A stretch of 32,000 nt of DNA from Myxococcota bacterium (GCA_039028615.1 JBCCHT010000001.1:123890-155889), one strand, 5' to 3'; counted from the first letter of the stretch, positions 2,070 through 30,984 are shown. Numbers and translations: made by a program. Notes: generated by a model not told the origin, from the letters alone.

Positions 2070-2123
2070 CCCGTGGCCCTGCGTCGTCGCTGGGACGCCG
2101 GTCGGCGTGGTACCACCAAGGCG

Positions 2124-6208: not shown

Positions 6209-6210
6209 GC

Positions 6211-8208: not shown

Positions 8209-8552
8209 TTCCAAGCTCGCGTGCCCCGACGGCAACGGTGTCGGGGCTCGCGGTCTCATTGTTCCACGAGGCATCACCGATGACATGAATCCGTCGATTC
8301 TCTGCAGAAAATTCACCGTCATCGACGGGCTCTCGTCTCATGCCTCGTGCATGCGAAGATCGCGCTGAAGTCGAGTCGGTGGTTACCGTCGTTCGCTCAC
8401 GATTCGTCGACGTCGCCACCCCGCGGGAAACTCCATCGCGCGAAAAAGTTTCGATCGTCGACTCGTCATCGCGATCGATGGCCACGGCAATGAGCCCGAC
8501 AGCGACGGAGAGGGTCACCGACCCGAAGCCCCCGCCGCAGCAGAGCATTGTC

Positions 8553-13154: not shown

Positions 13155-13811
13155 TCAGCTCGGGCGGTCGCCTTCGACGAGGCGGTCGCGGAGGGACTGG
13201 GCCCAGTTCTCGATGTCGCCAGCCGTGGTCTCGCGGAGGGCGGCGGGGAACTCTTCGGCCTTCAGGATCCACTCGCGCACCATCTTGCGGGCGCGGCTGA
13301 GGCGGCTCTTGACGGTACCGGGGGGTACGCCGATGACGACGGCGATGTCGTCGATGCGCATCTCTTCCCAGTAGTGCAGCTCGACGGCGATCTGGAGGTC
13401 GATGGGGATGTGCCGAAGCGCGGTGAGGACCAGCTTCTGCTCGTCCTTGCCCGCGACGGCGAGGGAGGGCGAGCCCATGACGTCGGCGATGGAGGTCTCG
13501 AGCTGATCGACCTTCTTGCCCTTGCGCGCATACTTGCGCAGGTGCATGAGCAGCTGGGTCCGCGCGATGGCCAGCAGGTAGGTCTTGAAGCTCGAGTCGC
13601 CGCGAAAGCGGTGGGCGCTCTCGGAGCAGGCGAGCATGGTCTGCTGCACCAGGTCCTCGGCGCCGTGGCTCACCTTGCTGCGAAAGAACCGAAAGAGCGT
13701 CCGAAAATGACGGCGGAGTAGGCGGGAGCCGGCGGTGTTGTCCCCCGCCCGCCACGCCTCCAGAAGCTCGAGATCTTCGTCCTTGGCCACGGTTGTACGG
13801 CACCGTAGCAA
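13155..13811 (-). CDS. ECF-family sigma factor, kinase-linked type with a C-terminal tail (sigma A)
   Basis: Region 2 AEDLVQQTMLACSESAHRFRGDSSFKTYLLAIAR. Region 4 AVELHYWEEMRIDDIAVVIGVPPGTVKSRLSRARKMV. A further ~36 aa tail follows. Start is TTG 13811 or GTG 13790. It lies 36 nt downstream of the kinase gene on the same strand. Confidence 0.9.
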   Translation of the reverse strand: MLRCRTTVAKDEDLELLEAWRAGDNTAGSRLLRRHFRTLFRFFRSKVSHGAEDLVQQTMLACSESAHRFRGDSSFKTYLLAIARTQLLMHLRKYARKGKKVDQLETSIADVMGSPSLAVAGKDEQKLVLTALRHIPIDLQIAVELHYWEEMRIDDIAVVIGVPPGTVKSRLSRARKMVREWILKAEEFPAALRETTAGDIENWAQSLRDRLVEGDRPS

Positions 13812-13847: not shown

Positions 13848-16800
13848 TCAGCCCGGCCCGGGGCGGTGATCGAGGCACAGCAGGCTGCGATCATGGCCGG
13901 CGACGAAGACCTCGAGCTGGCCGTCACCGTCGACATCGGCCACCGCGGGCGAGGCTTCGACCTCCTCGCGCCCGGTGCTGAAGCGCCACACCAGCGCTCC
14001 GGTGCGAGCGTCGACCACATGCACCGAGCCATCGTCGAAGCCGGCGAGAAACTCGAGCCCGCCGTCCCCCTCGAGGTCGGCGAGCACGGGCGAACCCGAG
14101 GCGCCCGGCTGGAGCCCGTCGCCGTCGGCGAACCGGTACTGCCACCGCAGGCGACCGTCGCCCGAAAGCCCGACCAGCCCGTTGTGGCCCGTGCTCGCGA
14201 ACACCTCGGGCACCCCGTCGCCGTCCACGTCGGCGGCGAGAGGCCGGGCCCGACGCGACGCCATCCCCGGCCAGCGCGCGACTTCGTGGCCATCGACTCC
14301 GGACAGCACCACCAAGGGGTGATCGTCCTGGTGGGGGGAGACCAGGATCTCGAGGTGCCCGTCGCCATCGAGATCGGCGGAGGTCGGCTCGAAATTGAGC
14401 CGGCCCCCGGTCTGCGTCTCCCAGCGCCGGACCCCGTCGTGGGTGAGCGCCACGACGTGACCGTCGAGCAACGCCACGACGATCTCGTTGGCGCCGTCTC
14501 CATCGAGGTCACGCACATGGGCCGCGCCGAACGAGCCGAAGCGTCCGAGTTCATGGGTCCACCGCAGCTCGAGTGACTCCGCATCGAGCACGTGCACCAT
14601 CCCCGGGTCCTCCCAGGTGACCATGATGACCTCGTGGTGTCCGTCCCCGTCGAGGTCGGCGATGGTCGGGCTCGCATAGGCCGAGGTCGTCCGATACTCG
14701 CCGGTCAAGCTCGCGTCCCGACCGTGGAAGCGGGAGAGCCCGCGACCGACGACATAGAGCTGAGGACCGTCGGAGCCGGACAGCATCACGGGTGGCCGGA
14801 TCACGTTGGGCGTGTCGTCGGCCAGGCTCTCCGCCTCCACCGATCCGGTACGGGCATCGAGTAGCTCGATCCGGGTGCGGTCCCCTAGCGGCCCGACCAC
14901 AGCGACCTCGAGCCGACCGTCTTCGTCGAAGTCCCCCGTCAACGGCGTCGCCCGGATCGAGTCGAGCGGTCGACGCTCCCAGCGAACCTTGGGTCCCACC
15001 ATCACCGCGGGTCCTCGCGCCCGGAGCAGCAAGTCTTCGAAACCGTCGTGGTTGGCGTCTCGGCTCGCTTCAATGGACCTCGCCGGCACCCCGATGGGCA
15101 CGGTGCCCATCGACTTCAAGCTCGGATCGAAGACTCGCACGAGGCCGTCTTCGGTGCCGACCATCAGGTCATCCCGAGCGTCACCATCCCAGTCGGTGAC
15201 CTCCAGCGCCGAGACGACTCGCGAGGGGAGCGTCACCCGAGCGGACTCTCGCCCGGTGGCCGCATCCAGCAACATGAGCGTCTCTTCGCGCCGATGCGCC
15301 ACCGCGGGACGGGCCAGGCTCCCCAACAGCTGCGCATGGGTCCCCACTCTCGCGGGCTCCTTCCACAGCGCCTTGCCGCTGCGCCCGGAGATCAGGTTGA
15401 GCCCCGGCTCGCCTTCGAGCCCCGACACCAGCACATCGACCGTGCCGTCACCGTCGACATCCCCCAGGTCCCGATCTCGCTTGAGCGCGACGTCACTGCC
15501 GATCTTCGCCTGCCACTGCACCTCGCCGGAGCGCCCCGACAACGCGACGAGGCTCGCGCCCTCGCCATCCGTCCTCAGCAACAAGTCCTGCCCCGGTTGG
15601 TCGTCGAGCTCCAGCGCGGCCAGCCGGGAGATGCGACTGTCTCGATTGCGCTGCGTCTGCACGATCCACTCTGGATCGACGCCGCCATCGGGGGTCCGTG
15701 CCGCGACCGCCAGCGGCCGAGTCCACCGCGTCGACCCATCGTCGGTGTCGAAACTCGTGACATGGTCGACCGACACGACCGCCACCGCGGGCGAAGACTC
15801 CGGGTCGGACGTCACGACGAGCACGACGGGGTCTTCAGGCAAGACCTGGGACCAATGGCGCGCGCCCGTTTGGCCATCGAAACGCGCGAGCTGCCGGGGC
15901 GCCAGGCCTCCCACCACCAGATCCTGGCCCCCTTCCGCGTCGACGCACGCCAGCTCGAACGCAAAGGGCCGCTCGACCTCGGCATCGACCGGCACGTCCA
16001 CCGTCCAGCGCGGCTTCGGCCGACGCGAGCTCGTGGTGGAATCGAACGCACGAAACTCGAGCACCTCTTCCCGAGGTTTCGCGGTCACGACATCGGGCAC
16101 ACCGTCGCCCTCGAGATCACAGAGCCGAAAGTAGGGGCTCGGGCCCAGCTCAATCCGCCAGTTTTCTTCATCGGACCACGGGTCGTACGCGGTCAAGACG
16201 GTGAAGCGCCGCTGAAGCAGGTCGTCGAGTCCGTCGCCGTTCACATCGCCCAGCCACCATGAACCCAAAAACGCCCCGGTCGCCGGCCGTGACCACGAAA
16301 GCGCCTTGCGCAGGGCGACGAAGCCCCGCTGGGTCTGCCCCGCCGTCGCGGTCCATTGCAACCGCTGGTCGACATACCCCTCGTGCCGCAGCAACAGCTC
16401 GTGCGGCCCGGTGTCGATCTTCAGTCCTCGTAGGCGTGATCCGTAGTCGGTGCCGTCGATGAACACGTGGCCGCCGCTGGGCTCGAGCTCCAGCTCGAAG
16501 GTGCCTTGCTGGTGATCGAGCTCGACCGCGACCTCGTGCATCCCACCGCGACGCACGTCGACCACCGTCTCCGCCGTGTCGTAGTCGGGCGCGCTCACCC
16601 GAACCCGATGCAGACCCGCCGCGACCTCGCCCTGCGCTCCCGGCAGCGGCTGTTCGTCGATCTCCACCTGCACCCCGGGCACGGGCTGCCCCTGCGCACT
16701 GGCGACCACCCGGACCTGCCCCGGCCGCGTGCCCACGTACCCGGCGTAGGCGATCGCAGCCACGCCCAACCCCACCGCGGCCCGGCTGCTCCAGCGCTTC

Positions 16801-17912
16801 ACTCGGCGGACCGGATCCGCCCGCAGCGCTTGCAGCAACGCCGCCATATTGGCGAAGCGTTGGCGCGGATCGGGCTCCAGCCCTCGCAACACGACGCGGT
16901 GGACCCACGCGGGAACCCGCACCTTCTCCGGCGGCGTACGGATCTGGCCCCGCGTCTTGCTGACGAAGAGCGTCTCGATGCTCCGTCCCTCGAAGGCGTG
17001 CACGCCGTACAGCGCTCGATAGAGCGAGGCACAAAACGCGAACTGATCCGCCTCTTGGTCGGCCGGATCGCCGCGGTGCTGCTCGGGAGCCATGTACGCG
17101 GGCGTCCCCAAGATCACGCCCGTACGGGTGAGCTTGTCCAGCGCGACCGACTTGACGGAGGGCTCCGGCTCGCTTCCTTCGTCGACGGGCATCGGCGTTC
17201 CCTCCCCCGTCCGCGACCCGGTGATCGAGCCGCCGTAGGTCAGCGCCAGACCGAAGTCGACGACCTTGACCCGACCGTCGTCACCGAGCAGCACGTTGGC
17301 GGGCTTGAAGTCGCGGTGGATGAGGCCCGCCCGGTGAGCCGCGTCGAGCCCCTCACCCGCCTCGAGAAAGACCTCGACCACCTCCCGCCACGACCGCGGA
17401 CCACGGCCGAGCCACGACGCCAGGTCGCTGCCCTCGACCAGCTCCATGACGATGAACACGCCGGTCTCGTCCGAGTCCTCGGGCGGAGCCATGGGCTCGA
17501 GAGGCCCGGACAGCTCGCTCGCCGAATAGGTCCCCACGTCGTAGACCCCGATGACGTTGGCGTGCGAAAGCCGGGCGATCGACTGGGCCTCGCGCACGAA
17601 ACGAGCGCGTGCCCGCGCCACCGCGTCGACGTCCTTGCTGCCCGAGCGCAGCACCTTGACCGCCACCCGACGCGCCAGCTCCGGGTCGTAGCCGTCGTAG
17701 ACCACCCCGGTGCCACCCGAGCCCAAGGGGCGCAGCAGCAGGTAGCGCGAAATTTTCAGGGGCTCGCGTGCGCGCGCGAACATGTTGCGCTCGATTCGAC
17801 CGAGCGCGCGCTCCTCTTCGACCGCATCCCAGCCCAGCGCCCCGTCGATGGCGTGGCCCAGCGTATCGACTGTCTGGATGGTCCCGTCGGGATCCGGCGT
17901 CGGCGTCTCCAA
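13848..17912 (-). CDS. membrane Ser/Thr protein kinase with PEGA-like domains and ~14 FG-GAP/VCBS repeats
   Basis: Hanks kinase motifs: LGSGGTGVVY, VAVKVL, HRDFKPANVLL, DFGLA, GTPAYMAPE. TM helix AAVGLGVAAIAYAGYVG. Two PEGA-like modules. About 14 DxDGDG-type repeats (GDVNGDGLDDLL, ADLDGDGHHEVIMV, ADVDGDGQLEVFV and others). Confidence 0.95.
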   Translation of the reverse strand: METPTPDPDGTIQTVDTLGHAIDGALGWDAVEEERALGRIERNMFARAREPLKISRYLLLRPLGSGGTGVVYDGYDPELARRVAVKVLRSGSKDVDAVARARARFVREAQSIARLSHANVIGVYDVGTYSASELSGPLEPMAPPEDSDETGVFIVMELVEGSDLASWLGRGPRSWREVVEVFLEAGEGLDAAHRAGLIHRDFKPANVLLGDDGRVKVVDFGLALTYGGSITGSRTGEGTPMPVDEGSEPEPSVKSVALDKLTRTGVILGTPAYMAPEQHRGDPADQEADQFAFCASLYRALYGVHAFEGRSIETLFVSKTRGQIRTPPEKVRVPAWVHRVVLRGLEPDPRQRFANMAALLQALRADPVRRVKRWSSRAAVGLGVAAIAYAGYVGTRPGQVRVVASAQGQPVPGVQVEIDEQPLPGAQGEVAAGLHRVRVSAPDYDTAETVVDVRRGGMHEVAVELDHQQGTFELELEPSGGHVFIDGTDYGSRLRGLKIDTGPHELLLRHEGYVDQRLQWTATAGQTQRGFVALRKALSWSRPATGAFLGSWWLGDVNGDGLDDLLQRRFTVLTAYDPWSDEENWRIELGPSPYFRLCDLEGDGVPDVVTAKPREEVLEFRAFDSTTSSRRPKPRWTVDVPVDAEVERPFAFELACVDAEGGQDLVVGGLAPRQLARFDGQTGARHWSQVLPEDPVVLVVTSDPESSPAVAVVSVDHVTSFDTDDGSTRWTRPLAVAARTPDGGVDPEWIVQTQRNRDSRISRLAALELDDQPGQDLLLRTDGEGASLVALSGRSGEVQWQAKIGSDVALKRDRDLGDVDGDGTVDVLVSGLEGEPGLNLISGRSGKALWKEPARVGTHAQLLGSLARPAVAHRREETLMLLDAATGRESARVTLPSRVVSALEVTDWDGDARDDLMVGTEDGLVRVFDPSLKSMGTVPIGVPARSIEASRDANHDGFEDLLLRARGPAVMVGPKVRWERRPLDSIRATPLTGDFDEDGRLEVAVVGPLGDRTRIELLDARTGSVEAESLADDTPNVIRPPVMLSGSDGPQLYVVGRGLSRFHGRDASLTGEYRTTSAYASPTIADLDGDGHHEVIMVTWEDPGMVHVLDAESLELRWTHELGRFGSFGAAHVRDLDGDGANEIVVALLDGHVVALTHDGVRRWETQTGGRLNFEPTSADLDGDGHLEILVSPHQDDHPLVVLSGVDGHEVARWPGMASRRARPLAADVDGDGVPEVFASTGHNGLVGLSGDGRLRWQYRFADGDGLQPGASGSPVLADLEGDGGLEFLAGFDDGSVHVVDARTGALVWRFSTGREEVEASPAVADVDGDGQLEVFVAGHDRSLLCLDHRPGPG

Positions 17913-19087: not shown

Positions 19088-19490
19088 GCCTCGACCGAAG
19101 ACACAATGAGAGGCCAAGAACACCGTTACTGACGTGAAATATTTGACACGTCGTACTAAAACGAAACGGCGTATCAGAGCGACGAACCTCGTCTTCCCGA
19201 ACTCGAATCGTCACCACCGCCCAGCGTCTGGCGTGGACATCCGGTGTCGCGCCCAAGACGTGGTCTGGCTCTGTGAAACCCCATCGTCAGACCAACCCGA
19301 TGAGCGTCGTGCACCTCCGCCTTCCGCCGCCGCGCCGGCCCGCCCCCGAGCGCGGGCACCTCGATCCCGAGACCGCCATGGCCGCGCTGTGCCGCGGTTC
19401 CGCCATGAACACCAACACCTCCGAGCATTGGGACTCCTGGAAGGCCATCGCCATCGCCCCCCGCACGTGGGCCCTGGTAGAACGGTTTCG

Positions 19491-19970
19491 ATGCCGCTCT
19501 ACGCCGTCGCGATCGCGCTGACCATCGTCGCCAACATCGGCTACCACCTGTGCCAAAAGGGTATCCGCCCCGAGGCCAGCCCCATCGCCACCGTGATGGC
19601 CACGTATATGGTCGCGCTCGCTCTGTCGGCCCTGATGTGGCCATGGCTCGGGCACTCCGATGGCCTCGTCGCCTCGTTCCGTCGCCTGGGCCCGGCCAGC
19701 TATGCGCTGGGTGGCTGCGTGGTCCTGCTCGAGATCGGCTTCCTCCTCGCCTACCGCAGCGGCTGGGACCTCGGCGTCGCGGCGCTGTACTCCAACGCCG
19801 CGACCGCGATCGTGCTGCTTCCGATCGGCTTGCTCGCCTTCTCCGAGGGCATCGACGGCCGCAAGGCGCTGGGCTTGGTGTTCGCGTTCGTGGGCCTGGT
19901 GTTGCTCAGCGGGGGCGGCGGGGAAAAGCCGAAGGATAGCGACGCACCCGCGGCCGAATCTTCGAGCTAG
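19491..19970 (+). CDS. small EamA/DMT-like membrane transporter (single-domain, ~5 TM)
   Basis: ATG 19491 starts directly in a TM helix (MPLYAVAIALTIVANIGYHL). There are four more hydrophobic helices and a hydrophilic tail. The in-frame upstream extension to 19134 is basic junk. Confidence 0.75.
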   Translation: MPLYAVAIALTIVANIGYHLCQKGIRPEASPIATVMATYMVALALSALMWPWLGHSDGLVASFRRLGPASYALGGCVVLLEIGFLLAYRSGWDLGVAALYSNAATAIVLLPIGLLAFSEGIDGRKALGLVFAFVGLVLLSGGGGEKPKDSDAPAAESSS

Positions 19971-22831
19971 CCCCGCGCCTGACGGTGCGCCGCGACGGTA
20001 TTCATGCGGCGGACCTCGCCCGCGTCCCAGGCCGAGATCGCGGCGCGGCCGAACGTCGACTCGCTCCCACGCAAGTACTCGAGCGCGGGCTCGGCCCGGA
20101 CCCGGGCGTCGTCGTGGCGACCGACGGCCCGTAGCGCATGCGCGTGCGTGAGTTCGAGAACCCGGCGCACGAGCTCGCCGTGGCGCTGGGAGTCGGCGAA
20201 TGTCGATGCGTCCGCCAGCACCTCCAGCGCCTGCTCGGGCTCCCCCTTCGCCAGCCAGACCCGGGCCTCGAAGTCCAAAAAGAGCATGACCATGAAGTGC
20301 TCGGGCGCGTAGCTGCGCTGGATCTCGGTGGCCGCCGACGCGCGGTCGAGGGCGTCGTCCAACCGCCCCTCGATCAGCGCGAGCTCTCCCTCGAACCGGG
20401 TGACCGCGGCCAGATCGGGCGTTCCGTCGGGGTGAAGCGCTTGCATGATCCGACGCGCATCGGCCAGGTTGTCGCGCGCTCCGTCGAGGTTGCCCGTGTA
20501 CAGATCGAGCTGGGCGAGCAGCGCCTTGGCATTGCCCACGGGCACGCTCACCATTCCCCGAGAGTCCCGCCACGCTGCGATTGCACGCCGCACCAAGCCC
20601 TGCGCGGTCTCGAAGTCACCGTCCCCTTTTTCGAGGGTGGCGAGGTTGTAGTAGCGCGGCGCCAGCTCGGGGTGCGACTCGCCGAGGATCTCGGCCGACA
20701 GCGCGATGCTCTGGCGCAGCAGCGGCTTGGCGCGCCCTCGCTCGCCGTCGTTGATGTAGGTGACGGCCAAGTCGTTGAGGATGACCGCGAGGCGCACGCG
20801 GGACCGAGTGTCGTCGCCCGAGAGCCGCTCGCGGGCCTGCTCGAGAGCAGCGAGCGCTTCGTCGTAGCGACCTTGTCGGTGGAAGATGCCCGCCCGAGTC
20901 TGGAGAACCGAGACCTCGAGCTCGATATCGTCGGGAGCCCGGCCCAGGGCTCCGGTTGCGACCCGAGCCCATACTTCACCCGCTTCGTAGCGATCGAGAT
21001 GGTACCCGAAGACATCGGCGAGCGCGTTGGCGACCGTCCCGGCGAGCGCCACGTCATCGACCAACGTGGCCCGTTCGTAGGCATCGTGCAGGTGCCGTTG
21101 GGCGTCCTCGAAGCGGCCAAGTCGAACCTCGGCCCGCGCCAGCTCGTAGGCAACCTCGGCCACGAACGCATCGGGAGCCCCCGACGCGTCGACGAGCAGC
21201 TGCTCCAGCCGAACGCGCGCCCGCTCGTAGTTCCCGATCTCGATCGCGGTCGTGGCCCGCGCCAGCGCCTCCGTCAACGCTTCGTTCGCCGCTGGCGGGA
21301 CCTCGAGTTCGGTGCCCGTACCGTAGTGCATGCACTCGACCAACGGAGGCAACGAAACGGCCGCCTTGGTTGCCGACTCCACCGTGGCCCGGTCGGCGTT
21401 CTCCAGCGTATCCACCAACGACTCGAGGCTGGCGAGCCCTCGCTGCAAGCAGGCGACGCGTCGGTGTTCCTCGCGGTCGTCGATCTCTTCGCGAACCCGG
21501 CACAACAACGAGGCCCCCTGCTCCCAGCGCGTAGCGTAGTCGCTGAGCACCGCCCCCGTTCGCGAAGCGGCCGAATGCGCGAAGCCCAGTCCGCTGTCGT
21601 CGAAGGCGCGGGTCATCGTTTCGAGGCGACCCGAGTTCCACACCGACTGGACTTGCTGGGCTCGGATCTCGCAGGGTTCCTCCGTCTGGGACCCGGCCAT
21701 CAGCGCCACCGCCAGTCCCATCGCTCCGAAGCCGCTGGGGATCCAGCGCTGCCATCGTCGGCTCGACTTGGGCTCGAACGCGGCCACCACCTCTGCCATC
21801 GACTCCGGCCGCGCGTGAGGATCGGGGGCAACGCCGCGCGCGAGCACGCGACGCAGCCGGCTGGGGGCCGAGCGCAGCAGCCCGGCGATTTCGGCCTCGA
21901 AGCGAGCGGAGCCTCGCCGGTCGTTGTCGCGAGTGAAGACGCGCTCGCCCGAGATGATCTCGATGGCAGTCACACAAAACGCATGGATGTCGCTGCGAAC
22001 CGACGCGGGACTCCCCTCGAGCTGCTCGGGCGCCATATACGAGGGCGTGCCCGCGACCGTGGGCGCCTGGGAGTTCGAGCAATCGTCCATCGGTGCCGCC
22101 AGCCCGAAGTCGGCCAAGCGAGCCTGGTTTCCACGGTCGACGAGGATGTTGCCCGGCTTGATGTCGCCGTGGATGATCCCGACCTCGTGGGCGGCTTCGA
22201 GCCCCAACGCCGCCCCATGCAACAGCTGCAGCTTGGTCGGCAGCGGCGCGGCGCGATGGCGGGCCATCCAGTCGTGCAGGTTGGCGCCGTCCACCTGCTC
22301 CATGACGATGAAGACCTCGTCGTCGTGCTCGCCGATCTCGAACACCCGGACGATGTTGGGGTGGGAGATCCGAGCCAAGGTGCGCGCCTCGGACTGCAGC
22401 GCCGCCGCCCCGCCCCGGATGAGCGTGCTCCGACAACCCACCGCAGAGCCGATGGAGAGCACTTTGAGCGCCACCGTCCGCCCGAGCTTGGGGTCCTTGG
22501 CCTCGTAGACCGCTCCCACCCCGCCCTGCCCGAGCTTCCGCTCGAGCACGAAGCGCCCCACCGTCGTACGCTCGCCGTCGCCGAGACCGAGTCGGGCGCT
22601 GATCCGTTGGGACAGCAGGCGATCGGCGCGGTCCTGCTGGGGCGGGCGACCGACGACCAGCAGCTGGGACAAGGGCAGGCCGAAGAGCGCGCTTTCCTGC
22701 GCTCGTTCGCTGCCCTGGAAGGTATCGAGCTGGATCGGCGCGGACAGTTCCCGCGTGGACGCCTCGTCGTCGCCATCGCGCAGCGACAAGGGGGCGAAGG
22801 GCGTCGCCGCCCTCGGCGTACAACTCGACAC
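19967..22831 (-). CDS. membrane Ser/Thr protein kinase (non-RD, HGD) with a TPR-repeat sensor region
   Basis: GTG 22831. Kinase motifs: LGQGGVGAVY, VALKVL, IIHGDIKPGNILV (Gly replaces the usual Arg of HRD), DFGLA, GTPSYMAPE. TM helix GFGAMGLAVALMAG. The rest is ~550 aa of TPR-like helical repeats. Confidence 0.9.
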   Translation of the reverse strand: MSSCTPRAATPFAPLSLRDGDDEASTRELSAPIQLDTFQGSERAQESALFGLPLSQLLVVGRPPQQDRADRLLSQRISARLGLGDGERTTVGRFVLERKLGQGGVGAVYEAKDPKLGRTVALKVLSIGSAVGCRSTLIRGGAAALQSEARTLARISHPNIVRVFEIGEHDDEVFIVMEQVDGANLHDWMARHRAAPLPTKLQLLHGAALGLEAAHEVGIIHGDIKPGNILVDRGNQARLADFGLAAPMDDCSNSQAPTVAGTPSYMAPEQLEGSPASVRSDIHAFCVTAIEIISGERVFTRDNDRRGSARFEAEIAGLLRSAPSRLRRVLARGVAPDPHARPESMAEVVAAFEPKSSRRWQRWIPSGFGAMGLAVALMAGSQTEEPCEIRAQQVQSVWNSGRLETMTRAFDDSGLGFAHSAASRTGAVLSDYATRWEQGASLLCRVREEIDDREEHRRVACLQRGLASLESLVDTLENADRATVESATKAAVSLPPLVECMHYGTGTELEVPPAANEALTEALARATTAIEIGNYERARVRLEQLLVDASGAPDAFVAEVAYELARAEVRLGRFEDAQRHLHDAYERATLVDDVALAGTVANALADVFGYHLDRYEAGEVWARVATGALGRAPDDIELEVSVLQTRAGIFHRQGRYDEALAALEQARERLSGDDTRSRVRLAVILNDLAVTYINDGERGRAKPLLRQSIALSAEILGESHPELAPRYYNLATLEKGDGDFETAQGLVRRAIAAWRDSRGMVSVPVGNAKALLAQLDLYTGNLDGARDNLADARRIMQALHPDGTPDLAAVTRFEGELALIEGRLDDALDRASAATEIQRSYAPEHFMVMLFLDFEARVWLAKGEPEQALEVLADASTFADSQRHGELVRRVLELTHAHALRAVGRHDDARVRAEPALEYLRGSESTFGRAAISAWDAGEVRRMNTVAAHRQARG

Positions 22832-23076
22832 GTCGGGCGTACGCCGGCGACGCCGAGTCGATTACAAAGAAAATCGTGTCGGGCGACCGAGTGCCGCATT
22901 GACCAACGCCCGGCACCGATGACTGCGTGCGGCACCCGCCCGCCGTCGTGAGCACGCCGCGACCCGGCCCACGGCAGCGCGGCGTCGCCCCGGCGGTGCC
23001 CTAGCCCGGCGCTGAGCGCCAAACAGGGTCTAACGCTTGAATTTGCCACGCAGAGGCATTGAACTCGGCCACCGTG

Positions 23077-24018
23077 ATGTCTCGCTCCACGCCGCAACGA
23101 CTCGGCCTCTCGCTCTTCGCTCTCGCCCTCGGTGTGCTCACACCGGCCGCGTGCAACAAGCCGCAGCCCACGACGACGCCGGAGGTGGAACCGAGCACGT
23201 CCGGTTCGACCGAGTCGAAGAAGCCCGCGCCGACCGATGCCGGTCATGGCGGGCGGCTGTACGACAAGTGGTACGCCGAGATCGGGGGTGAACCCGGCTT
23301 CGCACCCGGCGAGCGCGGAGGTCCCCACGGCGACGGCACGCTCGACGATGGCAACGGCCAGCCCATGGCGCACGACGGCCACTCGTACCGACTGAAGAAC
23401 CTCTTCGGCTGGGACCTGCGCGGAGCCGAGGGGATCTACGGGCCCGAGTACCAGAACAAGAGCTACGTCTTGCCGGTCAACCTCATGACCGACGAGCGCA
23501 CGCCCGACGAGCTGATGGCGTGGATTCGGGACGGCGGCGACGGAATGCCCGCCTACGGGGCCGTGCTCGACGAGACGCAGCTGCGCGAGCTGGTGACCTT
23601 CATCGACGACATGCGAAGTGGTCGCGTTCCTCGAGCCGACCAGGTCTGGGCCCTGTCGAAGGATGCGCCGAAGAACTACACCCTGCTCGAGGGGGGTGAT
23701 GCCGCGCGGGGTACCGAGCTGGTGAAGAGCTCGTGCGCGTCCTGTCATGGCCCGGATGGACGCTGGATCCCCATCGACGACAAGTACAGCCTGGGGGCCT
23801 ACTCCCGCGCCAAGGCCTACGAGTCGTGGATCAAGATCGTCAGCGGTCAGCCCAACACCCCCATGCACCGCGAGATCGAGTTCACCGACGGTGCGGACGG
23901 GGCTCAGCAGGTGCTCGACATCCTGGCGGCGCTGTGCGACCGAGGCACCTTCCCCGGCCTCGACGGTCAGGAGGACGTGCCCAACGGCGATCCTCGCTGT
24001 GGCGCCTACCTGAAGTAA
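23077..24018 (+). CDS. c-type cytochrome, probable lipoprotein
   Basis: Signal sequence LGLSLFALALGVLTPAAC. A single heme-binding CXXCH (SSCASCHGPDG) sits in the C-terminal half. Start could be TTG 23059, GTG 23074 or ATG 23077. Confidence 0.8.
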   Translation: MSRSTPQRLGLSLFALALGVLTPAACNKPQPTTTPEVEPSTSGSTESKKPAPTDAGHGGRLYDKWYAEIGGEPGFAPGERGGPHGDGTLDDGNGQPMAHDGHSYRLKNLFGWDLRGAEGIYGPEYQNKSYVLPVNLMTDERTPDELMAWIRDGGDGMPAYGAVLDETQLRELVTFIDDMRSGRVPRADQVWALSKDAPKNYTLLEGGDAARGTELVKSSCASCHGPDGRWIPIDDKYSLGAYSRAKAYESWIKIVSGQPNTPMHREIEFTDGADGAQQVLDILAALCDRGTFPGLDGQEDVPNGDPRCGAYLK

Positions 24019-24039
24019 GGCCGGCGCGCAGCGGCCCCA

Positions 24040-24645
24040 CTACCCGCGGGTGAGTTCGGCGTGAAGCTCGAGCACCTCGCCCGCGCGCATGGGCGGCCAG
24101 CGACGACCGCCCAGCACGATGTCCCACGCCAGCCGCATCTGCGTGGCGCAGCGCTCGGGGCTCATGCGACCGATGGCCGTGGCGAGCCCGGGACACAGCA
24201 CTCGCTCGATCTTCGATTGGCTCCGAGCGTTGTGCTCGACCACCGCGATCAGTGCCGCCCGAAACGCGAGGTAGGCATTGACGGTGTGGGGCACGGGCAT
24301 CGGCACCCGCATGGTGGGCGCGCTGACCAGCCACGGCATTCGCGAGTCCACCGTCTCCACGATCACCGCCTGACCGATCGCCAGCTCGCCGTAGTGATGC
24401 TCTCGTAGGTGCGTCTGCAGCCGATGCTGGAGCCCTGCACCGAAGCGATCGAGGTAGACGGCATCGATGCCGCCATCCATGTAGCCGAAGCTGTTCGCCG
24501 GGCTGACGATCGCGTCCGCCTCGACGTCGAAGATGTCGCCCCGACCGATCTCGACCTCGTCCAGCGAGCCGAAGTGGCGGGTCCACGCGTCCACGATTGC
24601 CTGGTTGCGATCGCGAAGCACGACGGTGATGCGAGAGTCGGCCAT
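24040..24645 (-). CDS. macro-domain protein (ADP-ribose binding / hydrolase fold)
   Basis: ATG 24645. Diagnostic macro-domain stretch DAIVSPANSFGYMDGGIDAVY plus the later VLCPGLATAIG. It lies 47 nt downstream of the ECF sigma gene on the same strand. Confidence 0.85.
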   Translation of the reverse strand: MADSRITVVLRDRNQAIVDAWTRHFGSLDEVEIGRGDIFDVEADAIVSPANSFGYMDGGIDAVYLDRFGAGLQHRLQTHLREHHYGELAIGQAVIVETVDSRMPWLVSAPTMRVPMPVPHTVNAYLAFRAALIAVVEHNARSQSKIERVLCPGLATAIGRMSPERCATQMRLAWDIVLGGRRWPPMRAGEVLELHAELTRG

Positions 24646-24692
24646 CCCGCGCCTTTATCACGCGACCCGCAATGGCGACAAACGGCAGTGGT

Positions 24693-25346
24693 TCAGCGCC
24701 CCGGCTCCGCCTCGACCGCACCGATGTGCTCGCGAAGGGCCCGGGCCCAGCCTTCGAGGTTCGACAGCGTGGACTCGAGGACCCGGTGGTCGGCCGCGAT
24801 GGAGCCCAGCGCCTTGGCCAGCGCCTTGCGCCCGCGAAGCAGCCAGGTCTTGGCCGTCCCGAGCGGAATGTCGAGGACCTGCGCGATGTCGGACCCGCGC
24901 ATGCCTTCCCAGTAGTGCAGCTCGAGCACGACCTGCTGATTGAGCGGCAGCCGACGCAGCCCTTCGAGGATGAGCCGCTGCTCCCGGCGACGCGCCACCA
25001 CGCGGCTGGGCGATGGATCGAGGTCGAGCGCGGTGACCTCGTCGAAGTCGACCTGAGGCGGCGTGCGACGGAGGCTGCGGTAGTGACGACACAGGAGCCG
25101 ATAGGCGACGCCAAAGAGGTAGCGACGAAAATCCTCGGGCCGCTGCAGACGCTCGATGCCCTCGAGGCAGGCGAGGAAGGTCTTCTGGACGAGATCGTCG
25201 GCGGCTTCGCCCGCCTTGTTGCAGAAAAAACGCGCAACCGGCTCGTAGTAGCGCTCGAACAGCTGGTCGGCTGCCGCCCGGTCGCCAGCCTTCCAGGCCA
25301 GCGCCAAAGCGTGGTCTGCGGTCTCACCCATCAGCCCCTTCAGCAT
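24693..25346 (-). CDS. ECF-family sigma factor, kinase-linked type with a C-terminal tail (sigma B, paralogue of 13155-13811)
   Basis: Region 2 ADDLVQKTFLACLEGIERLQRPEDFRRYLFGVAYR. Region 4 VLELHYWEGMRGSDIAQVLDIPLGTAKTWLLRGRKAL. A ~37 aa tail follows. It is divergent from the WD40 kinase gene with a 62 nt spacer. Confidence 0.9.
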   Translation of the reverse strand: MLKGLMGETADHALALAWKAGDRAAADQLFERYYEPVARFFCNKAGEAADDLVQKTFLACLEGIERLQRPEDFRRYLFGVAYRLLCRHYRSLRRTPPQVDFDEVTALDLDPSPSRVVARRREQRLILEGLRRLPLNQQVVLELHYWEGMRGSDIAQVLDIPLGTAKTWLLRGRKALAKALGSIAADHRVLESTLSNLEGWARALREHIGAVEAEPGR

Positions 25347-25408
25347 AGCGGAGCAAAAAGCCGACCCAAGGGTGAATCCCGGATCGGGGCGTCGGGAACC
25401 ACCGAGAT

Positions 25409-28400
25409 ATGCACCCCTCGCCCCCCGACTCGTCTTCCCACGGCCCGATCGGAGCCGGTCTGCACGTGACGTATGCTGTTCCGGCGTCGATGTCCGCCGA
25501 AACCGACCCGACCGTGGCTGCCAAGGACTTCGTGGTCCCTCGGTTGCTCGATGATGCGGACGGAAAACTGCGTAAGCACGCGATCAAGGCCGCGCTCATC
25601 GGCGACGACGGCCCGAGCCAGCAGATCGGCCGCTACCAGGTGCAGCGGCGCCTGGGCCAGGGCGGCATGGCCGTCGTCTATGCCGCCCGCGACGAGACGC
25701 TCGAGCGCACGGTCGCGCTCAAGCTCCTGACCCGTGGCACCGATCTGGACGAGTCGACCGAGCGACGACGACTGCTGCGAGAGGCCACCGCGCTGGCGCG
25801 GCTGCAGCATCGCGCGGTCGCGACCGTGCACGAGGTCGATGTCCACGATGGGCACACCTACCTCGCCATGGAGTACGTGGACGGGCAGACCCTGGGTCAG
25901 TGGCTCGAAGAGCGCCCCCGCCCGTGGCGAGAGGTCGTGGGCGCATTCATCGAGGCCGGCGAGGGCCTGGCGGCGGCCCACGCCTCCGACATCATTCATC
26001 GCGACTTCAAGCCCGCGAACGTCATGGTGGCGAAGGACGGGCGCATCGTGGTGCTCGACTTCGGGCTCGCTCGCTCCGCCCGGGTCGACGCGGTGGAGGA
26101 CCCCGAGGCGCTCGAGGCCCTCATCGCCCCCGCCCAGGACTCGTCGGAGCTGTCGTTCGACCTCACCATGACCGGGACCCTGCTCGGCACGCCCGGCTAC
26201 ATGTCGCCCGAGCAGTTCCTGGGGGTCGAGACCACCGCCGCGAGCGACCAGTTCAGCTTCTGCGTGGCGCTGTTCGAGGCCTTGCACGGCGAGCGCCCCT
26301 TCCCCGCCCGGTCGATCGCCGAGCTGGCCCGCGCGGTGACCTTGGACCCCCGCCCTTCGCTGCGCAGCGGGGTCCCGCGACGGCTGCGACGAGCCGTACG
26401 GCGTGGCCTGGCTGCCTCGCCCGAAGAGCGCTGGCCCTCGATGCCCGCGCTGCTCGACGAGCTACGCCGCGTGATTCGACCCCGACGACCGCTGGTGATG
26501 GTCGCGGGCGGAGCCTTGGTCGCCGCCGCGAGCCTGGGTGCCGCGGCGTGGTACGCCGACCATGTCGACGCGCAGGCCGAGGAGCAGTTCGCTGCCCAAG
26601 ACCGTGAGGTTCGAGACGCCACGCGCATGCAGGCCGTCTCGTCGCTCGCGGATTCCGACCCCACCGCGGCCTTGGCCTTGGTGCGCGAGGTCGAAGATCC
26701 CGCGGGCACCAAGCAGTGGTCCGAGACCGCGCTGGGGCTGCTGCAGCGCCCGTACTGCCAGGTCGTGCGTCGAGACCACGGCGAGGCCTGGCCCTGGACG
26801 ACGAGCGTATCCCCGAGCGGTACCCATGTCCTCACCGGGTCCAGAGACGGCAGCGTGCACCTGTCGCGCATGGACGGTCACGGCAAGGCCTGGGCCGCCC
26901 ACGACGTCGACGCGGTGGCGGCGGCTTTTTCTCCCGACGGGCGCATGATTGCCAGCGCGGGCACGGCCGTGCGGGCGTGGACCTTCGACGGGTCCCCCGA
27001 TCCCGCCGAGGCAGTCACGTTCCGCTCGCTGTCCGCCCTGATGACCAGCGGCTCGACGCCGGGCATCGCCGTCTCCAACGACGGACTCATCGTCAACGGC
27101 TCCAACGACGGCACCGTCTATCTGTGGCGGGTCCCCGACTCCGATCGAGAGCCGGGACCGCCCCAGATCCTCGCCGCCCACGACAAGGCCGCCTGGAGCG
27201 TGAGCCTCAGCCCCGACCGACGGACCCTGGCCACCGCCTCGATCGACGGTACCGCCAAGATCTGGTCGCTCGACTCGGCCGAGCCCACCGAGCTGGCCAC
27301 GCTCCGCCACGACGGGCCGATCTGGACGATCCGCTTCAGCCCCGACGGTGAGCAGCTGCTCACCGCAACCAGCGATCACCACGCCACGCTGTGGTCGGCG
27401 AGCACGGGCGAGCCGCTCGCCGAGTGGAGCCACGACGGACCTCTGCTCAACGCCGATTTCTCCCCCGACGGCCGACGCGTGGCCACGGGCGGCGAGCAAG
27501 GCACCGTGCAGCTGTGGTCGACCGAGCGCCCGGACGAGCCCGCCGTGGTGCTGCGCGGGCACGCGGCCAACGTCAACGACGTCGAGTTCTCGCCCGACGG
27601 TGGGCGACTGCTCAGCACCTCGCAGGACGCCACCGCGCGGGTCTGGGCCGTGCCCGACCGCGGCGCTTCGGTGGACGCCCCCGTCGTGTTCCAGATCGGT
27701 GAGCCCGTGTTCTTCGGTCGCTTCTCCCCCGATGGCGAACGCATCGTGCTCTCGTCGGAAAACAGCGTGACCCGGGTCTGCCACGTGCAGCGGCCCGCGT
27801 CTCGCACCACCGTCGAGCTTCCCAACACCCTGCGGTCGATGGCGGCGAGCGCCGACGGCTCGATGCTCGTGGGCACCACCTCGCGTGGCCTCGTGCAGCT
27901 GTCCGGCTCGAACATCTCGACCATCGATGCCGAGACGCCGTGGGAGCACCACACCATCGACCTGACCCCTGATGGCACCTGGGCCGCCGCGCGGGAGCCT
28001 TCCGGCCCCATCCGCGTGTGGCAAACGCGGGGCACCCGGGTGCACCGGGCCCCGACCGAGCTCGAGCGCGTGCGAGCCATCGCCCTGGCGCCCGACGCCA
28101 CGCTGCTGGCCGCGGCCGACGACCGGGGCGAGCTCCAGGTCTGGTCCATCAGTGCTTCGGGCCTCGAGCCACGAGCGCGACTGTCGGGGCGCGGGGCCAG
28201 CATCGAGACGCTGACCTTCACCAAGCGGGGCGCGCTGGTGGCCGGCGACCGCGAAGGGCGACTGCTGCACTGGTCCGACCTGGACGACGACCCGGCGCTG
28301 CTCGACACGGGGCGCGACGCGCTGCTGTTGGTCGTCGCCGATCTCGTCCGCAACCGGGTCGCCGCCCTCGACGAAGCGGGCACGACTCGCGTCTGGGAGG

Positions 28401-28822
28401 TCACCGACGACGGCCGCTTCACCGCCACCGCCAATCTGAAGGCCGACCCGGCCCGGCCCCGGACCCTCGCCTTCGTCGACGGCGGTGAAGCCCTGCTGGG
28501 CGCGGCCGCCGATGGCCGAGTCCTGCGATGGCGCGACCACAGCCCCGAAGCATGGCAGCCCGTGGCCTCGCTCCCCGCCGGCGGCGACCTCGGCTCGATG
28601 GTCATCGTCGCGAACGGCCAGCGCGTCGTGGGAGGCGGGGTCGCCAATCGCCTCGTGCATCGCTGGGAGACGGCGGACTTCGAGACCGACCCACAGACGC
28701 TCCAGCGGCGGCTGTGGGCCGCGACCACCGAATGCCTGTCCGTGGCTCACCGCCGCGAGCTGCTGGGCCAAGACGAAGACACGGCCCAGGCCGCGCTCGA
28801 GGCGTGTCGCGCCGAGTACTAG
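25409..28822 (+). CDS. membrane Ser/Thr protein kinase with ~14 WD40 repeats
   Basis: Kinase motifs: LGQGGMAVVY, VALKLL, HRDFKPANVMV, DFGLA, GTPGYMSPE. TM helix LVMVAGGALVAAASLGAAAWY. Repeated FSPDG...(S/T)xDxTxxxW units (for example FSPDGRRVATGGEQGTVQLW and FSPDGGRLLSTSQDATARVW). ATG 25490 is an alternative start. Confidence 0.95.
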   Translation: MHPSPPDSSSHGPIGAGLHVTYAVPASMSAETDPTVAAKDFVVPRLLDDADGKLRKHAIKAALIGDDGPSQQIGRYQVQRRLGQGGMAVVYAARDETLERTVALKLLTRGTDLDESTERRRLLREATALARLQHRAVATVHEVDVHDGHTYLAMEYVDGQTLGQWLEERPRPWREVVGAFIEAGEGLAAAHASDIIHRDFKPANVMVAKDGRIVVLDFGLARSARVDAVEDPEALEALIAPAQDSSELSFDLTMTGTLLGTPGYMSPEQFLGVETTAASDQFSFCVALFEALHGERPFPARSIAELARAVTLDPRPSLRSGVPRRLRRAVRRGLAASPEERWPSMPALLDELRRVIRPRRPLVMVAGGALVAAASLGAAAWYADHVDAQAEEQFAAQDREVRDATRMQAVSSLADSDPTAALALVREVEDPAGTKQWSETALGLLQRPYCQVVRRDHGEAWPWTTSVSPSGTHVLTGSRDGSVHLSRMDGHGKAWAAHDVDAVAAAFSPDGRMIASAGTAVRAWTFDGSPDPAEAVTFRSLSALMTSGSTPGIAVSNDGLIVNGSNDGTVYLWRVPDSDREPGPPQILAAHDKAAWSVSLSPDRRTLATASIDGTAKIWSLDSAEPTELATLRHDGPIWTIRFSPDGEQLLTATSDHHATLWSASTGEPLAEWSHDGPLLNADFSPDGRRVATGGEQGTVQLWSTERPDEPAVVLRGHAANVNDVEFSPDGGRLLSTSQDATARVWAVPDRGASVDAPVVFQIGEPVFFGRFSPDGERIVLSSENSVTRVCHVQRPASRTTVELPNTLRSMAASADGSMLVGTTSRGLVQLSGSNISTIDAETPWEHHTIDLTPDGTWAAAREPSGPIRVWQTRGTRVHRAPTELERVRAIALAPDATLLAAADDRGELQVWSISASGLEPRARLSGRGASIETLTFTKRGALVAGDREGRLLHWSDLDDDPALLDTGRDALLLVVADLVRNRVAALDEAGTTRVWEVTDDGRFTATANLKADPARPRTLAFVDGGEALLGAAADGRVLRWRDHSPEAWQPVASLPAGGDLGSMVIVANGQRVVGGGVANRLVHRWETADFETDPQTLQRRLWAATTECLSVAHRRELLGQDEDTAQAALEACRAEY

Positions 28823-28880: not shown

Positions 28881-28925
28881 TGGAGGATGACGGGATCGAA
28901 CCGACGACATTCGGCTTGCAAAGCC
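28881..28925 (-). pseudogene. truncated tRNA-Ala(UGC) gene, 3' portion only (anticodon loop to discriminator); putative att site
   Basis: The minus strand reads GGC-TTTGCAA-GCCGA-ATGTC-GTCGG-TTCGATC-CCGTC-ATCCTCC-A. That gives anticodon loop UUUGCAA (UGC), a canonical T-loop, an acceptor 3' strand with U at position 70 (G3:U70 Ala identity) and discriminator A73. No D-arm or 5' acceptor strand (GGGGGAT or similar) exists upstream, and tRNA similarity stops around tRNA position 28-29. Confidence 0.55.
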
Positions 28926-29103: not shown

Positions 29104-30462
29104 GTGGGGCTAAGCAACCGAAGCATCCAATCGGCGACTCGCAGCGGGCGACGTGTCGAACTTCAGGACGATGCCGTGCCGGGGCTGCATGTGGTCGTGA
29201 CGAAGGCGGGCTCGGCCTCGTTCGCCGTCCGTTACCGCATCCCAGGCGTGGGCCAGCGCCGCCTTCGGATCGGACGATACGGAATCCTGACCGTTGACCA
29301 GGCCCGCAAACTGGCTCGCAGCAAGCTCGCCGAGGTGGCGGCAGGGAAAGACCCGGCCAGGCCCGCCCCCACACCTCAAGTTCAGCCCCTCACCCAAGCG
29401 ACGAGCGGCTACCTCGAGCAGGCCGAGCATCGCCTTCGACCCAAAACGATGCAGACCTATCGGTCTGCCCTGGGGCGCATGCTCACCTGGGCAAGCCGCA
29501 GCGGCATCCGGAGCACCGCCGATCTAGACCGACCACAGCTAGCGGCGCTACGCGCCTGGCTCATCGCCTTACCCAAGCAGCGGGCCAAGACCGGAGGCAA
29601 ACGAGGGCAACAGGCCGCCACCCGCTCCCGCCGGAGCCCCGTGGCCGTCAACCGAGAGCTGCGGGCCATCAAGACCTTCCTCCACGAACTTCGGCGATCA
29701 GACCGACTGCCTCACCTGGATCGCGATGCGGTGGCCGACACCCTGCGAGCGCTTCCGGTGCCGCGCGAGCAGCCCTTCTTCCTCAGCCCGCCGCAGATCA
29801 AGAAGCTCCTCAAGGCTTGCCTGGCACATGACCAAGCGACCTTCGTGCTCACGCGGCGTGAGCGAGAGGGACTCGATCCAAAGGGCAGCACCCTGCGCCA
29901 CCGACCCATCGCCCCCTTCGCAGCCCTTCTGCTGCTGTCGGGCATGCGCCGTGGTGAAGCCTTGGCGCTGCGCTGGCGAGATGTAGATCTGGACGCCACG
30001 GACGTCAGCGGCCACCCCGTCGGTGAGATCCGCTTGCGCGCTGCGGCGACCAAGACCCACCAAGCCCGCACCGTAGGGCTTGAGGTCTCCCCTCGCCTGC
30101 GCTTGCTCCTTCAGGTGATGCAGCGCTGCGCGCAAGGGAGCACTGTCTTCGAGGGGTACAGCGCTCAGTCGGTGAGCAGCGCTCGTGCACGCCTGGTTCG
30201 AGATTTCGGGGCACCGCACTTCGATTGGCAGGGTCTGCGCTCCACCTGTGGCACCTACCTGACCAACGCCCCGTCCATCTTCGGGGCCGCCGCCCCCTTC
30301 ATGAGCGCCCGCCAACTGGGTCACTCGGTGGTCGTGGCCGAAAAACACTACGCCGGGCTTCTGCGGGGCATCTCCCCGAAGGCCCGCAGCCTCGATGCAG
30401 CTATGGGGATCGAGGACCTGCTCGAGGCCCTGGTTCAGGCCACGCGAAACGACGAGCGTTGA
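29104..30462 (+). CDS. tyrosine recombinase / phage-type integrase (P4-like, N-terminal arm-binding domain)
   Basis: The N-terminus resembles the P4-integrase arm-binding domain (VELQDDAVPGLHVVVTKAGSASFAVRYRIPGVGQRRLRIGRYGILTVDQARKLA). Catalytic region: LLLSGMRRGEALALRWRDVDL (Arg), GLRSTCGTYL (Arg), QLGHSVVVAEKHYAG (His...Tyr). GTG start at 29104. Confidence 0.9.
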   Translation: MGLSNRSIQSATRSGRRVELQDDAVPGLHVVVTKAGSASFAVRYRIPGVGQRRLRIGRYGILTVDQARKLARSKLAEVAAGKDPARPAPTPQVQPLTQATSGYLEQAEHRLRPKTMQTYRSALGRMLTWASRSGIRSTADLDRPQLAALRAWLIALPKQRAKTGGKRGQQAATRSRRSPVAVNRELRAIKTFLHELRRSDRLPHLDRDAVADTLRALPVPREQPFFLSPPQIKKLLKACLAHDQATFVLTRREREGLDPKGSTLRHRPIAPFAALLLLSGMRRGEALALRWRDVDLDATDVSGHPVGEIRLRAAATKTHQARTVGLEVSPRLRLLLQVMQRCAQGSTVFEGYSAQSVSSARARLVRDFGAPHFDWQGLRSTCGTYLTNAPSIFGAAAPFMSARQLGHSVVVAEKHYAGLLRGISPKARSLDAAMGIEDLLEALVQATRNDER

Positions 30463-30494: not shown

Positions 30495-30800
30495 CTACGC
30501 CGCCGTGTTGGTCCGCAGCCGGGCGTCTCGCCAGGCGCGAAGATCCGCCGCTCGATAGAACACCCGCCGCCCCAGCTTCAAGTACGGCGGACCGCCGCCT
30601 CGAGATCGGAGCGTGTTGAGCGTGGCCGGAGCGAGCCCCACGATGAAGCTCGCCCCGTGGACGTCGACCACTTCGGGCAGCAGTGCGAAGCCGCGCGTAA
30701 CTGCCTGCGGCGCAGCTTTTGATGTCGAAGGCACCGCAAGGCTCGTCGGTGTTTCGGGGAGGTGGGTGGCAGGACGCAGGCGGGCCGTCTTGTCGTTCAT
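30495..30800 (-). CDS. excisionase/AlpA-family helix-turn-helix DNA-binding protein
   Basis: ATG 30800. The C-terminal FIVGLAPATLNTLRSRGGGPPYLKLGRRVFYRAADLRAWRDA matches the Xis/AlpA (MerR-superfamily HTH) pattern. It is convergent with the integrase. Confidence 0.7.
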   Translation of the reverse strand: MNDKTARLRPATHLPETPTSLAVPSTSKAAPQAVTRGFALLPEVVDVHGASFIVGLAPATLNTLRSRGGGPPYLKLGRRVFYRAADLRAWRDARLRTNTAA

Positions 30801-30984
30801 CAAAGTTGTCCTTGTTGGCGACTGGGTCTGCCGCGTTTTCCGTCGCTGGCTACAGGCTGGCCTAGATGCAAAGAAGGCGCTGGAGTGGATGCTCCAAGCG
30901 CCTCGCACCAGGTGGTGCGGCTCATGACCATGCGAAGTTAGGTTCCTTGATGATTCCCTCCGGTGGAAGCATCACAAGCAAGTC

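Follow-up and report, generated by a model that had tools for sequence, protein, structure and literature searches.

A divergent kinase–ECF sigma factor pair conserved in relatives and a macro-domain gene of non-conserved position beside it in a Myxococcota bacterium

Gene content of the locus

A 32,000-nt stretch of DNA from a Myxococcota bacterium (GCA_039028615.1, JBCCHT010000001.1:123890-155889), referred to below as the window, was analyzed around positions 24040-28822, where a Ser/Thr kinase (kinase B), an extracytoplasmic function (ECF) sigma factor (sigma B) and a macro-domain protein are encoded side by side. The original prediction had described these genes as a kinase/sigma pair functionally coupled to an ADP-ribose reader or eraser. 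Open reading frames (ORFs) were called across the window, which has a base composition of about 69% G+C, and scanned with Pfam, NCBIfam, PADLOC and a hidden Markov model (HMM) of the sigma family. All the ORFs on which the prediction was built are present: the sigma B ORF at 24693-25346 on the minus strand, a kinase ORF of 1137 amino acids (aa), and a 201-aa macro-domain protein whose gene begins 47 nt after the sigma stop codon on the same strand.

Kinase B is a Hanks-type Ser/Thr kinase with Pfam Pkinase and WD40 matches, encoded on the plus strand, probably at 25493-28822, within the 1137-aa ORF that extends upstream to 25409 (25409-28822). The Pkinase domain covers residues 76-305 (119 bits), and its translation contains the catalytic motifs VALK, HRDFKPAN, DFGLA and GYMSPE. 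One hydrophobic segment follows at residues ~362-384, and WD40 and beta-propeller models match ~468-915 and beyond; about 14-15 WD-like blades were counted by eye in the translation, in agreement with the one transmembrane helix and roughly 14 WD40 repeats described earlier. The protein would thus consist of a cytoplasmic kinase domain, one transmembrane helix and two WD40 propellers in the periplasm. Myxobacteria and Planctomycetota typically possess single-transmembrane kinases that carry WD40 or TPR arrays in the periplasm (PMC11032199), and kinase B, with its predicted cytoplasmic Pkinase domain, one membrane segment and long C-terminal WD40 array, differs from this class in nothing notable.

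The start codon of the kinase gene was assessed against relative L008, the sigma B context of highest sequence identity. The first 28 codons of the ORF differ between the two genomes by 1 synonymous and 9 non-synonymous changes, and codons 29-66 by 14 synonymous and 9 non-synonymous changes. Since the first 28 codons change like non-coding DNA and the L008 gene is called from the downstream (second) ATG, translation of kinase B probably starts at 25493. The divergent arrangement of the kinase and sigma genes therefore stands, but the 62-nt spacer previously assigned to it becomes ~161 nt once both probable start codons are corrected.

Sigma B is a 212-aa protein when read from M6 (24693-25331, minus strand); its ORF can be extended to 25346, and the database copy of the protein (MGETADH...) begins at M6, i.e., at 25331. 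Pfam and NCBIfam matches (Sigma70_r2, 38.5 bits; Sigma70_r4_2, 51 bits; TIGR02937 sigma70-ECF, 81.9 bits against a cut-off of 42.9) identify it as a group 4 sigma factor composed of the sigma2 and sigma4 domains only. Its immediate neighbours are kinase B and the macro gene. No anti-sigma Pfam family was found among the window ORFs scanned, although a small unannotated anti-sigma gene could escape such a scan.

The macro-domain gene occupies 24040-24645 on the minus strand. Its product matched Pfam Macro at 33.5 bits (cut-off 22), and Macro_2 (PF14519) at 24.8 bits, below the cut-off of 27 and over residues 42-104 only; PF14519 is nevertheless listed in the precomputed annotations of the protein and of most of its homologues. 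A search returned 3316 homologues at E ≤ 0.001, which together form a tightly conserved family of stand-alone proteins of ~200 aa. The motif SPANSFGYMDGGID is present in the window protein and almost invariant across the family, whose invariant stretches include S-P-A-N-S-F-G, G-G-I-D, A-P-T-M-R and P-G-L. The AlphaFold2 model (predicted local distance difference test score, pLDDT, 91.7; predicted template modelling score, pTM, 0.90) retrieved 114 PDB matches at E ≤ 0.001 with Foldseek, and every one of the 50 best matches listed was a macrodomain or a macrodomain-derived design. Model and fold matches together support the three-layer alpha/beta/alpha macro fold with its mixed beta-sheet.

The yeast protein YMR087W (PDB 1njr/1txz/1ty8) was the closest structural and sequence match by every route taken. 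Entry 1njr, titled 'ADP-ribose-1''-monophosphatase', came first in a phmmer search of the PDB with the macro protein (E 1.7e-5; runner-up 7e-3), in a search with the family profile (E 9.2e-13; runner-up 1e-5) and in Foldseek (E 8.6e-11 over 199 columns; runner-up 2.8e-6). Because it tops the sequence, profile and fold searches alike, the macro protein is assigned to the Macro2 type; it resembles YMR087W more closely than members of the MacroD, ALC1/DarG, macroH2A, PARG or viral clades. The alignment covers the whole macro protein and takes in the N-terminal strand-helix as well as the (S/G)NS(F/Y)GY.(D/G)GG.D loop. The two proteins differ in their low identity (~21%), in length (201 aa against 284 aa) and in context, the macro locus showing no tRNA-splicing association. 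In a published classification, YMR087W is the only studied member of the Macro2-type clade, which is described as converting ADP-ribose-1''-phosphate to ADP-ribose and as having no de-MARylating activity (PMC6397177). Because this nearest characterized relative, for all its distance, is described as a phosphatase without de-MARylation, the macro protein would most likely, by analogy, handle an ADP-ribose metabolite, for instance by dephosphorylating ADP-ribose-1''-phosphate, rather than erase a mark on protein.

Conservation seen from the sigma and macro genes

Sigma B relatives were collected from six independent contexts, with 59-92% identity in the sigma protein, and their neighbours were read from each contig. 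In L008 (92%), the sigma gene is divergent from a gene for a 1106-aa kinase-WD40 protein and is followed by a gene for a 303-aa protein. In L010 (76%) and L097 (63%), a divergent kinase/WD40 gene (1245 aa in L097) is likewise found, and the gene beyond the sigma is convergent. L011 (60%) and L099 (59%) carry truncated divergent kinase genes, beside IS66 and at an integrase, respectively, with a GNAT acetyltransferase gene after the sigma in the former and a hemerythrin gene in the latter. In the remaining context (L093-096, 74%), the upstream gene is divergent but runs off the end of the contig and could not be identified, and an unknown 188-aa protein (L094) is encoded after the sigma. The divergent kinase is thus constant in every relative with a readable upstream gene (L008, L010, L011, L097 and L099).

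The gene after the sigma varies, and none of the six orthologue contexts has a macro gene at this position. Four of them have a small co-directional gene there (the 303-aa and 188-aa unknowns, GNAT and hemerythrin), and the gaps after the sigma in relatives measure 125-254 nt, resembling independent promoter regions. The comparison with L008 delimits the difference most closely. By blastn, L008 4426-8621 aligns with window 28925-24711 (kinase and sigma) and L008 9794-10812 with window 24026-23005 (the cytochrome c gene), leaving a window-specific segment of 684 nt (24027-24710) that holds the whole macro gene with short flanks; L008 has 1.17 kb of unrelated DNA instead. The possibility that the L008 303-aa protein is a degenerate macro protein was considered and discarded, as it shows no similarity to the macro protein and has no Pfam match. 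A metagenome scan with the sigma-family alignment added 80 further loci (43-74% identity). A macro homologue within 5 kb was found in none of these 80, and a kinase within 5 kb in 38 of the 63 with enough upstream sequence.

Some of the relatives show rearrangements of their own. In L099 (4012-5795), the kinase partner is truncated with an Arm-DNA-bind_3 integrase 9 nt away, and in L011 (2217-7868) it is truncated with IS66 nearby; the sigma gene is intact in both. With kinase remnants of 167-216 aa, these two sigmas may be natural orphans and could show whether the sigma works without its kinase. L010 carries an extra 841-aa ORF without a Pfam match at 5465-7990 (plus strand), between the conserved intergenic element described below and the sigma gene; 10 nt separate it from the sigma gene, which has the same orientation, and L101 1-212 is similar to it by sequence. 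This ORF belongs to a sigma lineage of 74-76% identity.

The reciprocal survey started from the macro gene. Macro relatives occur in at least 569 species (one genome scanned per species), spread over Myxococcota, Bradyrhizobium, Deinococcus, Acidobacteriota, Planctomycetota, cyanobacteria and one Asgard archaeon. Eighty fetched loci and the three closest homologues, 83 in total, were scanned with the sigma-family HMM. Even at E ≤ 10, none of the 83 has an ECF sigma gene at a distance of 2.6 kb or less; a sigma match at E ≤ 1e-4 within 6 kb occurred in only two, both ~3 kb away. The three closest homologues (69-74% identity) lie in contexts unrelated to each other: one adjoins a guanylate cyclase, one directly follows Rieske/cytochrome b, and one, the closest of all (L005), follows 278 nt at a contig end, a stretch in which no sigma-like coding was detected up to the cut. 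All-against-all clustering of the ORFs within 4 kb, with alternative-frame artefacts over the macro gene itself set aside, gave no recurrent neighbour, the best family being present at 7 of the 83 loci.

Two neighbourhoods on the macro side were inspected individually. A remnant of macro–cytochrome synteny was considered at L004, where a 72% macro homologue follows Rieske/cytochrome b-c, and was rejected, the cytochromes being unrelated to that of the window (best E 0.098). In L045 (4589-6582, Myxococcota), a 55% macro homologue is immediately preceded, at 39 nt, by a Pkinase ORF in the same orientation. No other macro–kinase adjacency occurs among the 83 loci, and this one is consistent with chance in a kinase-rich phylum; overall, kinases appear to lie near macro genes at about the rate expected for kinase-rich phyla.

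With the window included, the sigma–macro adjacency is found at 1 of 84 macro loci and 1 of 87 sigma loci. Given these two frequencies and the density of ECF and kinase genes in the window, the adjacency is no more than chance placement near one of the many myxobacterial ECF genes would give. Hence, of the proposed kinase, sigma and macro triad, the kinase/sigma part is borne out as a conserved divergent pair, and the macro gene drops out as a part of the module, not being syntenic with the sigma in relatives, an outcome that the original prediction had itself named as a refutation. The functional coupling of sigma and kinase to an ADP-ribose reader or eraser finds no support in the 0/6 and 0/80 sigma loci, the 0/83 macro loci and the replaced segment of L008.

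These surveys also bear on the idea that the macro protein acts, jointly with phosphorylation, as a reader or eraser of ADP-ribose marks on the sigma, the kinase or RNA polymerase. What speaks for such crosstalk is the adjacency itself, together with an intact macro fold carrying conserved motifs that resemble an ADP-ribose site. But the adjacency is conserved on neither the sigma nor the macro side, the macro family is widespread where this sigma/kinase pair is absent (Bradyrhizobium, Deinococcus, cyanobacteria and the Asgard archaeon among them), and its subtype is reported to lack de-MARylating activity (PMC6397177). No ADP-ribosyltransferase, sirtuin or DarT-like protein was found among the window ORFs scanned, in line with the earlier remark that no transferase or sirtuin partner was visible. 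We therefore regard this crosstalk as very improbable.

Intergenic elements and the surrounding region

The 47 nt that separate the stop codon of the sigma gene from the start codon of the macro gene (24646-24692, minus strand) were examined by reading their sequence and by a consensus scan; they contain no terminator-like hairpin and no match to a sigma-70-like promoter. Because the gap is short and no terminator is visible in it, read-through into the macro gene from the sigma promoter or promoters is plausible in the window genome. The look of an operon in which sigma and macro had been joined is to this extent compatible with the sequence, although the arrangement is seen in the window genome only.

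A second element was found in the kinase/sigma intergenic region. The sequence GTTCCC-N16-ATTCAC lies at 25372-25399 in the sigma sense (minus strand), where it is the sole exact match in the window, and is followed by a T-run. Allowing a spacer of N15-17, it occurs once and in the same orientation in 12 of 12 close sigma-orthologue loci, among them L008 (7933-7960), L010 (5343-5370), L011 (7892-7919), L093 (1204-1230), L097 (5873-5900) and L099 (5820-5847), and in none of the 88 other loci compared. The element was not found in the 80 more distant sigma loci. It is a candidate, on the strength of its sequence and position, for an autoregulated ECF promoter of the pair or another regulatory site. 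The element is absent in front of the macro gene, and a window scan with up to two mismatches gave 3 hits against 1.24 expected, which does not exceed chance; sigma-dependent expression of the macro gene would consequently need read-through.

Closer to the sigma gene, the -10-like hexamer TATGCT lies at 25342-25347 (minus strand), 10 nt before the sigma ATG (M6). In the window, L008, L011, L097 and L099, a TATGCT or TATACT precedes the sigma start codon by 6-19 nt, the relatives having TATACT, which suggests a second sigma promoter giving a near-leaderless transcript. A terminator-like hairpin at 25361-25387 was set aside, since it overlaps the conserved intergenic element and is at chance level (1 found against 0.7 expected), and an Rfam search of 23900-25600 returned nothing meaningful.

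The features of the spacer raise the possibility of a lineage-specific capture, in which the macro gene was recruited into the sigma B transcription unit as a real output of the pathway and the position after the sigma holds interchangeable effectors. Beyond the short, terminator-free gap on the common strand and the lack of a match to a promoter of its own, the macro gene is closely packed, its stop lying 21 nt from that of the convergent cytochrome c gene; its G+C content at third codon positions (GC3, 0.86) matches the neighbouring genes, and small co-directional genes follow the sigma in four of the six relative contexts. Yet those genes have no common theme, the gaps that precede them look like independent promoter regions, the GTTCCC-N16-ATTCAC element is missing before the macro gene, and the arrangement recurs in no second genome on either side of the survey (0/6, 0/80 and 0/83). 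Such a capture is unlikely in our estimation, though it retains some weight.

The 32-kb window carries three ECF-like sigma genes and three kinases. Sigma A (13155-13811, minus strand) is a paralogue of sigma B (HMM E 1e-71), and the gene for kinase A (13848-17912), which has PEGA, PQQ and FG-GAP domains, lies upstream of it on the same strand. A third ECF-like sigma is weakly matched at 1929-2759 (plus strand) and adjoins genes for a 910-aa CHAT-domain protein (3476-6208, plus strand) and an S8 subtilase (6211-8322, minus strand). A TPR-repeat Ser/Thr kinase identified by Pfam is encoded at 19967-22831 (minus strand), and the dihaem-type cytochrome c gene that converges on the macro gene occupies 23059-24018 (plus strand).

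The macro locus region shows other recent rearrangements. L008, although collinear elsewhere, lacks the stretch with the TPR kinase (window 19974-23004); its cytochrome c gene is immediately next to the sequence homologous to window 19471-19973, and the difference represents a 3-kb insertion or deletion. On the other flank, ~60 nt past the kinase B stop, the 3' ~48 nt of a tRNA-Ala(UGC) gene are found at 28881-28925 (minus strand). L008 has an intact tRNA-Ala at 4398-4473, and the homology between the two genomes stops inside the tRNA, at window 28925, beyond which G+C drops to 0.65-0.67. A tyrosine integrase gene (Arm-DNA-bind_3 and Phage_integrase; 29104-30462, plus strand) and an HTH_17 excisionase-like gene (30495-30908, minus strand) follow. 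The truncated tRNA, the integrase, the excisionase-like gene and the lower G+C indicate that an integrative element sits in tRNA-Ala just past the kinase B gene and that the window ends within it. The integrase in L099 is a distant relative of the window integrase (29% identity over the arm domain).

The integrative element, 100 nt beyond the kinase gene, would fit a role in defence, with the macro protein as a DarG-like antitoxin or the kinase as part of an anti-phage system. PADLOC gave a weak DarG match to the macro protein (18.1 bits, E 3.5e-4) and strong kinase-domain matches to kinase-containing defence models. The DarG match, however, aligns macro residues 31-111 with positions 2-76 of a 329-position model, i.e., it is restricted to the generic macro core, and no DarT accompanies it; the kinase matches reflect the generic Pkinase domain, and the neighbouring TPR kinase matches just as strongly. 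The integrative element does not include the kinase–sigma pair, which is collinear with L008, a relative without the element, and the macro family has no conserved toxin neighbour. Compared with DarTG and SirTM-macro operons, the macro protein shares a modelled fold that should be able to bind ADP-ribose, but no transferase accompanies it in the window, no partner gene is conserved in the 83 loci, and it is of the Macro2 type rather than the ALC1/DarG or MacroD/SAV0325 types of those operons. Membership in a defence or toxin–antitoxin system thus appears extremely remote.

Putative kinase-linked regulation of sigma B and reading of the locus

Kinase-linked ECF sigmas that lack anti-sigma partners are an established class, comprising ECF43, ECF59-62, ECF217, ECF267 and ECF283 (PMC7826278). 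In ECF43, direct activating phosphorylation has been demonstrated for EcfP by PknT in Vibrio parahaemolyticus and for EcfK by PknS in Xanthomonas citri, and the hallmark of the group is that S/QTTA, which includes a phospho-acceptor Thr, stands in for the lost acidic DAED of region 2.2 (PMC8999054, PMC13147305). Sigma B resembles kinase-activated ECFs in that it adjoins a transmembrane Hanks-type kinase, has no adjacent anti-sigma gene and is found in a conserved pairing.

Column statistics of the sigma family were derived from 121 homologues. Region 2.2 of sigma B reads A-A-D-D-L-V-Q-K-T; across the family, Asp51 is kept in 117 of the 121 proteins, position 47 is D or E in 77, Q-E is replaced by Q-(R/K) in 115 and the next Thr is kept in 119. 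The loss of charge is accordingly partial, affecting only the Q-E to Q-(R/K) position. Ser/Thr residues at 105, 112 and 114 of the sigma2–sigma4 linker are conserved at 87-97% and recall the EcfK linker phosphosites T104-S110. A C-terminal tail of ~35 aa after region 4 (window 24693-24800) is also conserved, with T193, L197, W200 and R205 invariant. Membership of sigma B in ECF43 was rejected, since its region 2.2 lacks S/QTTA and Asp51 is so widely kept; the AADD with this Asp, the family Q-(R/K)-T in place of Q-E and the tail all set it apart from that group. Its sequence thus places sigma B among the kinase-associated ECF sigmas, but outside ECF43, and the charge-reversed Q-(R/K)-T together with the conserved tail may mark a distinct kinase-linked subgroup. 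Sigma A shares these features, with VQQT in region 2.2 and W..LR in the tail. By analogy with the characterized kinase–sigma pairs, activation of sigma B through phosphorylation by kinase B is plausible.

Since the gene after the sigma differs in relatives and the macro family has no sigma neighbour, the macro gene falls outside the conserved unit. We consider it probable, at about 75%, that this unit is the kinase and sigma pair and that the macro gene is a stand-alone Macro2-type gene in a variable slot, its place in the gene order being accidental. We hypothesize that the membrane Ser/Thr kinase would sense its signal through the periplasmic double WD40 propeller and would activate the divergently transcribed ECF sigma by phosphorylation, with no adjacent anti-sigma gene involved. 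The macro protein would bind or process an ADP-ribose metabolite independently of the pair, its gene filling, in the window genome, a slot of variable content flanked by the sigma and cytochrome c genes, and any read-through into it from the sigma promoter or promoters would be a lineage-specific by-product of gene order.

Several observations weigh against this reading. The 47-nt gap, common strand and missing terminator mean that the macro gene could be sigma-controlled in the window organism, and the absent conservation is compatible with a young, lineage-specific sigma–macro operon. The small co-directional genes after the sigma in relatives suggest that the slot may hold interchangeable sigma-driven outputs. 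On the kinase–sigma side, sigma B keeps part of the acidic region 2.2 patch, which leaves regulation by phosphorylation presumptive, and on the macro side the phosphatase-only description comes from a single yeast protein at ~21% identity. A fuller form of the capture scenario would have a Macro2-type enzyme drawn into a kinase-activated sigma unit, so that a signal sensed by the WD40 propellers turns on the processing of an ADP-ribose-derived metabolite or modification, the post-sigma position serving as a swap-in effector slot for macro, GNAT, hemerythrin and the unknowns; we consider it distinctly unlikely.

Together, the results separate two questions that the triad, had its conservation held, would have joined: it would have linked Ser/Thr phosphorylation of a sigma factor with ADP-ribose turnover in bacteria, and would for the first time have placed the Macro2-type proteins of bacteria in a physiological context. 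As the macro link is confined to one genome, it offers no handle on either. The macro proteins of bacteria that resemble YMR087W make up a very large family of stand-alone proteins without a conserved partner, and this argues for a housekeeping metabolite role over signalling or defence. The kinase–sigma pair, for its part, provides an orthologous WD40-kinase/ECF set with a shared intergenic element and a region 2.2 unlike that of ECF43, in which it could be tested whether kinase-linked ECF sigmas outside ECF43 need phosphorylation.

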